Shown here piece by piece: positions 29,731 to 29,910 of a DNA stretch of 64,000 bases. Each line of letters opens with the position of its first letter. The first letter of the stretch is position 1. The stretch covers positions 6,219 to 70,218 of the forward strand of contig CAJTXZ010000011.1 of NCBI GenBank assembly GCA_910583725.1, read 5' to 3'. The notes beneath the pieces are model-generated. The model had not been told where the DNA came from and did no database searches. It saw nothing but the letters and a program-made list of their open reading frames with translations. Source of the DNA: an uncultured Vampirovibrio sp. (GTDB lineage Bacteria > Cyanobacteriota > Vampirovibrionia > Gastranaerophilales > Gastranaerophilaceae). The position numbers were made by a program, and so were the translations under genes.

Positions 29731-29910
29731 TATATGCAATTGTACACAAAAATTTGATTTAACTTTTTTCTTGCAATGGAGTGTCATATACATATAAATG
29801 ACCGTTCCGATAGGCTTCTGCGGAGCCTGAAGCCGTAAACCGGTCATTTATATGTATATGACACGGAATGAAAAGAAGACATTTAATGAGCGGGTGTACA
29901 AAAGCATATA
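29731..29910 (+). repeat. extended-hairpin dispersed element, copy A (candidate structured RNA or MITE)
   Basis: Terminal inverted repeats tatatgcaattgtacac (29731-47) / gtgtacaaaagcatata (29894-910). Conserved CTTGCAATGGA (29770-80) and GGAATGAAAAGAA (29865-77). Perfect 24-bp central stem 29781-29804 / 29841-29864. Confidence 0.8.

Follow-up and report, generated by a model that had tools for sequence, protein, structure and literature searches.

A dispersed long-hairpin repeat in Melainabacteria that may represent a MITE-like mobile element

Three intergenic loci within a 64,000-nucleotide stretch of DNA from an uncultured Vampirovibrio sp. (the whole of which is referred to below as the window) have been proposed to share one architecture, in which outer inverted repeats enclose a conserved 5' motif, a long central stem with a small inner hairpin, and a conserved 3' block. 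Considering that the central stems of two of these loci differ in sequence and yet are perfectly paired, the original prediction favoured a structured RNA or a protein-recognised DNA hairpin over a decaying repeat, which raises the question of what kind of element carries such a hairpin. Our results suggest that the family consists of small non-autonomous DNA transposons of a MITE-like type, a reading to which we give a probability of roughly 0.55. In its behaviour the family resembles a selfish mobile repeat rather than a host RNA gene, and the evidence for its mobility is favourable yet incomplete. The family is an undescribed one, although the kind of element is ordinary, and its internal loop is unusually well kept.

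The repeat is ~190 bp long (about 185-200 bp) and folds as one long hairpin; the window contains four copies, and a fifth was found in a related species. The three loci of the original prediction are real and homologous to each other (copies A, B, and C, alignable across ~190 nt, with copy C 84% identical to copy B), and the copy number has been extended by a decayed copy D in the window and by copy E in the related species. Their locations are as follows (A-D in window coordinates):

29724..29910, forward strand: copy A, whole element, perfect 24-bp stem (z = -8.7)
29724-29747 and 29894-29910: left and right terminal repeats of copy A
29765-29780: 5' motif of copy A
29781-29804 and 29841-29864: central stem arms of copy A
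29813-29818 / 29829-29834: inner hairpin of copy A
29865-29886: 3' block of copy A
40522..40711, reverse strand (inverted): copy B, whole element, decayed stem
40711-40688 and 40544-40522: left and right terminal repeats of copy B
40674-40659: 5' motif of copy B
40658-40636 and 40599-40576: stem arms of copy B
40575-40552: 3' block of copy B
52986..53169, forward strand: copy C, whole element, perfect stem
52986-53005 and 53147-53169: degenerate left terminal repeat and right end of copy C
53019-53034: 5' motif of copy C
53035-53058 and 53094-53117: stem arms of copy C
53118-53139: 3' block of copy C
58442..58593, forward strand: copy D, decayed relic detected by profile search (nhmmer E = 5e-29)
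L011:2940-3137: copy E, from a mouse-gut catalogue ('Candidatus Melainabacteria' MAG)

From the outside inwards, each element begins with terminal inverted repeats of 17-23 bp (GGCAATTATATGCAATTTTAYAC / GTGTAAAATTGYATATAATTGCC), which are followed by poorly conserved spacers and then by an outer stem of 7 bp (TTTTCTT/AAGAAAA). Between this outer stem and the 24-bp variable stem lies an internal loop of 8×8 nucleotides (GYAATGGA / GGAATGAA), and beyond the variable stem is an asymmetric apical region with the inner hairpin. In addition, a small local hairpin (CAYYT-N7-ARRTG) is found on the 3' side only and carries one compensated change in copy E. Copies A and B have the consensus TATATGCAATTTTACAC at both ends with 1-3 mismatches, and the four such sites in the window, against 1.0 expected, are all ends of these two copies. 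The outer inverted repeats described earlier are therefore present, and they extend further than proposed, to ~23 bp (GGCAATTATATGCAATTTTAYAC); on the other hand, they are degenerate in copies C (its left repeat) and E. The 5' motif TTTTTCTTGYAATGGA was confirmed as exact in all three of the loci first noted, and in a scan of the window it occurs at 29765(+), 40659(-), and 53019(+) only, while copy D has it at 58477-58492 with 1 mismatch to the degenerate pattern. The 3' block GGAATGAAAARAANNCATTTAA is exact in copies A and C (0.21 occurrences expected by chance in the window scan) and carries a 2-nt insertion in copy B. Copy D retains remnants of both terminal repeats, the apical block, and CATTTAATGA, and has lost the 3' stem arm. 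The internal loop, which was thought to be strictly invariant, occurs in two variants, GCAATGGA in copies A and B and GTAATGGA in copies C and E. The G+C content of the element is 30-40%. The open reading frame that starts at the conserved ATG in TTGCAATGGA ranges from 12 to more than 30 codons depending on the copy, implying that the element is not coding; no two copies agree in its length and frame, and a small peptide was rejected on these grounds.

Single-strand folding gave a perfect 24-bp central stem, an inner hairpin of 6-9 bp, and the 7-bp outer stem in both A (-53.1 kcal/mol, z = -8.7) and C (-51.0 kcal/mol, z = -10.7), and none of 200 shuffled sequences was as stable as either of them. 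Of the 24 stem positions, 9 are not the same in the two copies, nor are 2 positions in the inner hairpin, and each difference is mirrored on the opposite arm, in agreement with the claim that their stems have diverged without losing perfect pairing. Covariation was examined using an alignment of copies A, B, C, and E (alignment A5) and its RNAalifold structure of 62 pairs, in which 88.7% of cells are paired. Two-sided changes were observed in 14 pairs. Shuffling of the columns gave 6.1±1.9 such pairs, with 14 reached once in 500 shuffles, and a control in which the 3' partner was slid by 1-3 columns yielded only 0-3. Thus, the stem compensation exceeds its controls and is genuine, albeit from only four sequences, and it is compatible with either DNA or RNA as the molecule that folds. 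Degradation is evident in the fold of copy B (-26.1 kcal/mol, z = -1.95), and pairs other than Watson-Crick account for 10 of 57 in B and 15 of 57 in E. In the alignment, non-Watson-Crick cells comprise 12 of G·T and 8 of A·C; there is no strand bias between G·U and A·C, and this test is uninformative.

Conservation differs considerably among regions of the element. Mean pairwise identity is 0.92 and 1.00 for the internal loops and 0.93 for the outer 5' stem, but 0.58-0.72 for the terminal repeats, 0.58-0.65 for the central stem arms, and 0.44-0.75 for the spacers. The two loop halves form a direct repeat (AATGRA on both arms) within an otherwise inverted structure and would therefore give a two-fold symmetric loop on the folded strand, for which fold prediction suggests G·A-closed 3×3 loops flanking an A-U/U-A step. 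Based on the stem mismatches of copies B and E, in-place decay may be estimated at ~9-13%, at which 1.4-2.1 changes would be expected in the 16 loop bases of each copy, and none is found in either. By a rough Poisson estimate, the joint chance of this is ~3%, and the unchanged loops of B and E are marginal evidence for constraint after insertion.

Could such hairpins be the product of a family of structured non-coding RNA genes, perhaps carried on a mobile unit, in which the hairpin with its tandem G·A-type symmetric internal loops is what functions (for instance, as an RNA that binds a protein or is processed by RNase III)? The very stable folds would suit this explanation, as would the compensation in the central stem, the inner hairpin, and the 3' hairpin (CAUYU-N7-ARRUG), and loops that are 92-100% conserved while the stems drift. 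However, promoter- and terminator-like sites are no more frequent than in shuffled sequences and none is common to the copies, the orientation relative to genes is mixed, and there is no excess of G·U on the supposed sense strand (12 vs 8). Rfam gave no match in the window at the gathering threshold, and in E-value scans of copies A and C it returned only generic microRNA hairpin models of plants and animals, on both strands and far below threshold. Moreover, pairing has been lost in copies B, D, and E, none of which has been purged, and D, though it lacks an arm, is conserved to the same degree as its flanks. The suggestion that these loci are better explained as a structured RNA than as a decaying repeat is not supported by these findings. 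Nor would an RNA gene account for the terminal and junction repeats. Taken together, we consider an RNA gene family an unlikely explanation, while the protein-recognised DNA hairpin, which had been proposed alongside it, is still a live option. We also tried an intrinsic terminator or attenuator as a candidate and rejected it, as no T-run follows the stem on either strand and none is predicted.

The window copies lie 5-12 kb apart among housekeeping genes, in the spacers of a flhA-like gene (A), an Fe-repressor gene and a gene for a 440-aa protein (B), tmk and a 228-aa gene (C), and a sigma-70 gene and a 188-aa gene (D), and copy E lies between an AMIN/Amidase_3 gene and secD, neighbours that have no similarity to genes of the window. 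Relative to the downstream gene, copies C, D, and E are in sense and copies A and B in antisense orientation. Direct repeats are present at the junctions of copy B (AAAAAT on both flanks, 6 bp) and copy E (AAAATT, 6 bp), and shorter ones at those of A (4 bp, TTTT) and D (3 bp), with none at C; a direct repeat of at least 6 bp is expected by chance at ~1.2% per comparable AT-rich junction. Target-site duplications had been named as a point to check in the original prediction; the putative ones seen here vary among the copies, with 6 bp in two of them and none in C. As the flanks are AT-rich and those on the left of A, B, and E are alike (AAAATTT-like), the apparent duplications may belong to the element itself or reflect target preference.

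Comparison with relatives suggests that the copies differ in age, since D is shared with a sister lineage in which C is absent. Copy D is found at the orthologous spot there (L117-L120, E = 5e-20) with an identity of ~89-94%, which is no better than that of its flanks. In the tmk spacer of the same lineage, 146 bp of unrelated sequence takes the place of copy C, i.e., a replacement; the idea that this segment is a decayed copy was rejected, since 66 of 500 shuffled sequences scored at least as high as its local alignment to the element (score 14). The spacer of copy B is too diverged for alignment in the nearest relatives, the contig of the only near relative at the A site ends 67 bp upstream of the flhA-like gene and before the element, and assemblies of the same species are all identical. 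No clean empty site was detected via homologues of tmk, the 440-aa protein, and the FlhA-like protein together with 12 contig look-ups.

Several other features were observed in and around these spacers. The FHIPEP/FlhA-family protein next to copy A (28197-29651, reverse strand) has only 484 aa and no other flagellar or type III secretion genes adjoining, and it is conserved across many Melainabacteria (homologues 54-58% identical, named Gastranaerophilales or Cyanobacteria, which points to a Melainabacteria origin of the window). In the neighbourhood of copy B, a TTGACA box followed by an inverted repeat (TTGTTAG-N6-CTAACAA) is located at 40801-40863, upstream of the 440-aa gene of unknown function, and is conserved in two distant relatives (L132 and L133). 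As the gene at 39989-40414, which neighbours this site, encodes a DtxR/MntR-type Fe-dependent repressor, the inverted repeat may be its operator. The tmk/228-aa spacer that contains copy C (52935-53420) measures 486 bp here, 326 bp in L117, and ~185 bp in L272, and its middle part is unrelated in each of the three genomes, so this spot looks like a recurrent insertion or replacement site. Within it, a palindrome at 53260-53282 (TTACAATTT-N5-AAATTGTAA), upstream of the 228-aa gene, is conserved in L117 and recognisable in L272 and is probably an operator. Just upstream of copy D and downstream of the sigma-70 gene, a G+C-rich hairpin (58414-58432, CCTCTGC-CTTTT-GCAGAGG), which is kept in the sister lineage, is likely the terminator of that gene. 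Elsewhere in the window, an inverted repeat at 17304-17396, with 42-nt arms that are 79% complementary and 9 nt apart, adjoins an HTH_3 gene (17808-18167) and a Gp49/HigB-like plus HTH pair.

Further copies and a gene that could mobilise them were then sought in larger collections. Pattern scanning of one genome per species (185,579 genomes) revealed 17 loci, of which only the one in L011 (copy E) is a true homologue and the other 16 are chance matches, mostly in coding sequence. All 97 loci with the 3' block pattern in JGI metagenome contigs and all 120 loci in IMG/VR were likewise due to chance, and BLAST searches of phage and plasmid collections gave no match. Scanning with a covariance model (R1), which had been recommended for related genomes and metagenomes, was carried out together with an nhmmer profile on the window and 30 related loci and yielded no further copies, and no further copy was detected in ~15 kb more of the source contig, in the window with filters off, or in ~320 kb of related genomes. 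The original prediction noted the absence of transposase, reverse transcriptase, or Cas genes nearby, and in agreement we found no transposase, integrase, reverse transcriptase, or Cas domain in ~80 kb of the source contig. Similarly, no transposase and no autonomous, solo, or longer element with matching ends was detected in ~385 kb of Melainabacteria DNA, and the search for an autonomous insertion sequence, also part of the earlier proposal, was negative within that DNA. The source contig does encode an MmeI-family type IIL restriction-modification enzyme (L140:19725-20753), ~9 kb past the end of the window.

Small MITE-like transposons are the explanation that we prefer, on account of the terminal inverted repeats, the direct repeats at junctions, and the presence of the element in both orientations and in unrelated spacers of two species. 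The differing ages of the copies, their decay in place, the lack of RNA-gene signals, the genuine covariation, and the precedent of bcr1 in Bacillus also speak for it. According to this model, a transposase encoded elsewhere, or since lost, would act via the 17-23-bp terminal inverted repeats and insert the element into AT-rich, promoter-side spacers with duplication of ~6 bp. Inserted copies would not be maintained by the host and would decay, as B, D, and E have done, whereas in the propagating lineage the arms would remain complementary while their sequence drifts, giving rise to A-type and C-type stems. The compensated stems of A and C would then stem from this lineage rather than from host selection on each copy. 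Two causes of the co-variation are conceivable. Firstly, a folded single strand, of DNA or of a transcript, might be required for propagation. Secondly, template switching from arm to arm might restore identity without selection. Template switching that extends identity between the arms of quasi-palindromes is a known mutational route (PMC3820800) and could yield the 'compensated' stems of A and C; it is a mutational process and not an element family, and it leaves unexplained why the asymmetric loops were never homogenised. Acting alone, it should erase these loops as well, and yet nothing else in the element is so well preserved, which suggests that a mobilising protein would read the loop block. 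The best candidate for its recognition site is the sub-terminal TTTTCTTGYAATGGA / GGAATGAAAARAA, which forms the two-fold symmetric loop.

Several observations count against MITE-like transposons. Loops that are better kept than terminal repeats are the opposite of a textbook MITE, only five copies are known, with no parent element and no clean empty site, and the likeness of the left flanks of A, B, and E makes the target duplications less certain. The contrast between loops (92-100% conserved) and terminal repeats (58-72%) hints that a folded single strand is perhaps what is recognised. A tentative possibility, less probable than the general model, is that recognition of the element, and perhaps its movement, takes place on a folded single strand, in which the loop, closed by G·A-type mismatches, would be the putative site of a dimeric protein and the stem a spacer that either drifts freely or sets specificity.

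A more specific alternative is a mobile or recombination site that is read as folded single-stranded DNA by the logic of attC sites or IS200/IS605 ends, where structure and a few loop bases are recognised. On duplex DNA, the loop halves do not form an inverted repeat and differ from each other as sites, and on the folded strand they give a symmetric loop; the stems are variable yet perfect in A and C, and the loops outlast the terminal repeats, all of which this alternative would accommodate. Nevertheless, the ~80 kb examined revealed neither a tyrosine recombinase nor an HUH/Y1 transposase, a TnpB, or an integron integrase, the copies share no RYYYAAC/GTTRRRY boxes, form no cassette array, and lie in mixed orientations, and the terminal inverted repeats and apparent target duplications are absent from IS200/IS605-type elements. 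We therefore regard it as doubtful. The least probable explanation, a REP/BIME-like palindrome recruited by the host to bind a nucleoid or replication protein or to influence mRNA stability, and spread by recombination instead of transposition, would fit the intergenic, promoter-side locations, the conserved internal motif, and the retention of D in two lineages, but can largely be set aside, as D is conserved no better than its spacer, related genomes lack the element at the same spacers, and the element is far longer and more AT-rich than REP sequences, with no RAYT-type gene seen.

Known families were also compared with the Melainabacteria element, and several could be rejected. REP/BIME sequences are GC-rich palindromes of 20-40 nt that are often clustered and accompanied by a RAYT gene; the present copies are single, ~190 nt long, and 30-40% in G+C, and no RAYT-like gene was seen. 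PATEs are characterised by sub-terminal hairpins without terminal repeats or target duplication and by a TnpA(Y1)/TnpB partner, and a PATE derived from IS200/IS605 was discarded in view of the terminal repeats present here and the lack of a Y1 transposase or TnpB among the annotated genes. Integron attC sites are recognised as folded single-stranded DNA, and the element resembles them in that unpaired or extrahelical features of a hairpin are conserved while its stem varies in sequence but remains paired; they were rejected as an identity since there are no R''/R' core sites, cassette array, or intI, the orientation is mixed, and terminal repeats are present.

Closer likenesses are found among MITEs. 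Nezha of cyanobacteria is a MITE of the same long-hairpin design. The Correia/nemis elements of Neisseria, ERIC, and RUP resemble the Melainabacteria element in their terminal inverted repeats, size of ~100-200 bp, and absence of an ORF, as well as in being intergenic, occurring in both orientations, and forming a long stem-loop at the RNA level (PMC3184786). In these families, the terminal repeats are the best conserved part and a parent insertion sequence can usually be identified, whereas in the Melainabacteria element the loop motifs outlast the terminal repeats and no parent was found. The closest described analogue, likened by description and not by sequence, is bcr1 of the Bacillus cereus group, which belongs to another phylum. 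It is a mobile, transcribed repeat of ~155 bp flanked by 5-bp direct repeats, with compensatory changes and repeated loss of stability among its copies (PMC3184786). Both are small, non-coding, dispersed intergenic repeats with short flanking direct repeats and a stable, compensated fold. On the other hand, bcr1, which is known to be transcribed, folds as two independent stem-loops and the Melainabacteria element as one extended hairpin.

Hardly any mobile elements have been described from the non-photosynthetic Melainabacteria. The present family illustrates that perfect 'compensated' hairpins alone do not signal a functional RNA, as the same signal can result from selection on propagating selfish palindromes or from arm-to-arm template switching. 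If any feature could open a new direction, it is the reversed pattern of conservation, in which loops are kept better than terminal repeats and which bears on how a mobilising protein reads the element. If the folded-strand reading were true, Melainabacteria would possess a new mobile element that depends on its hairpin, or else a structured RNA that is mobile, and not a plain DDE-type MITE.
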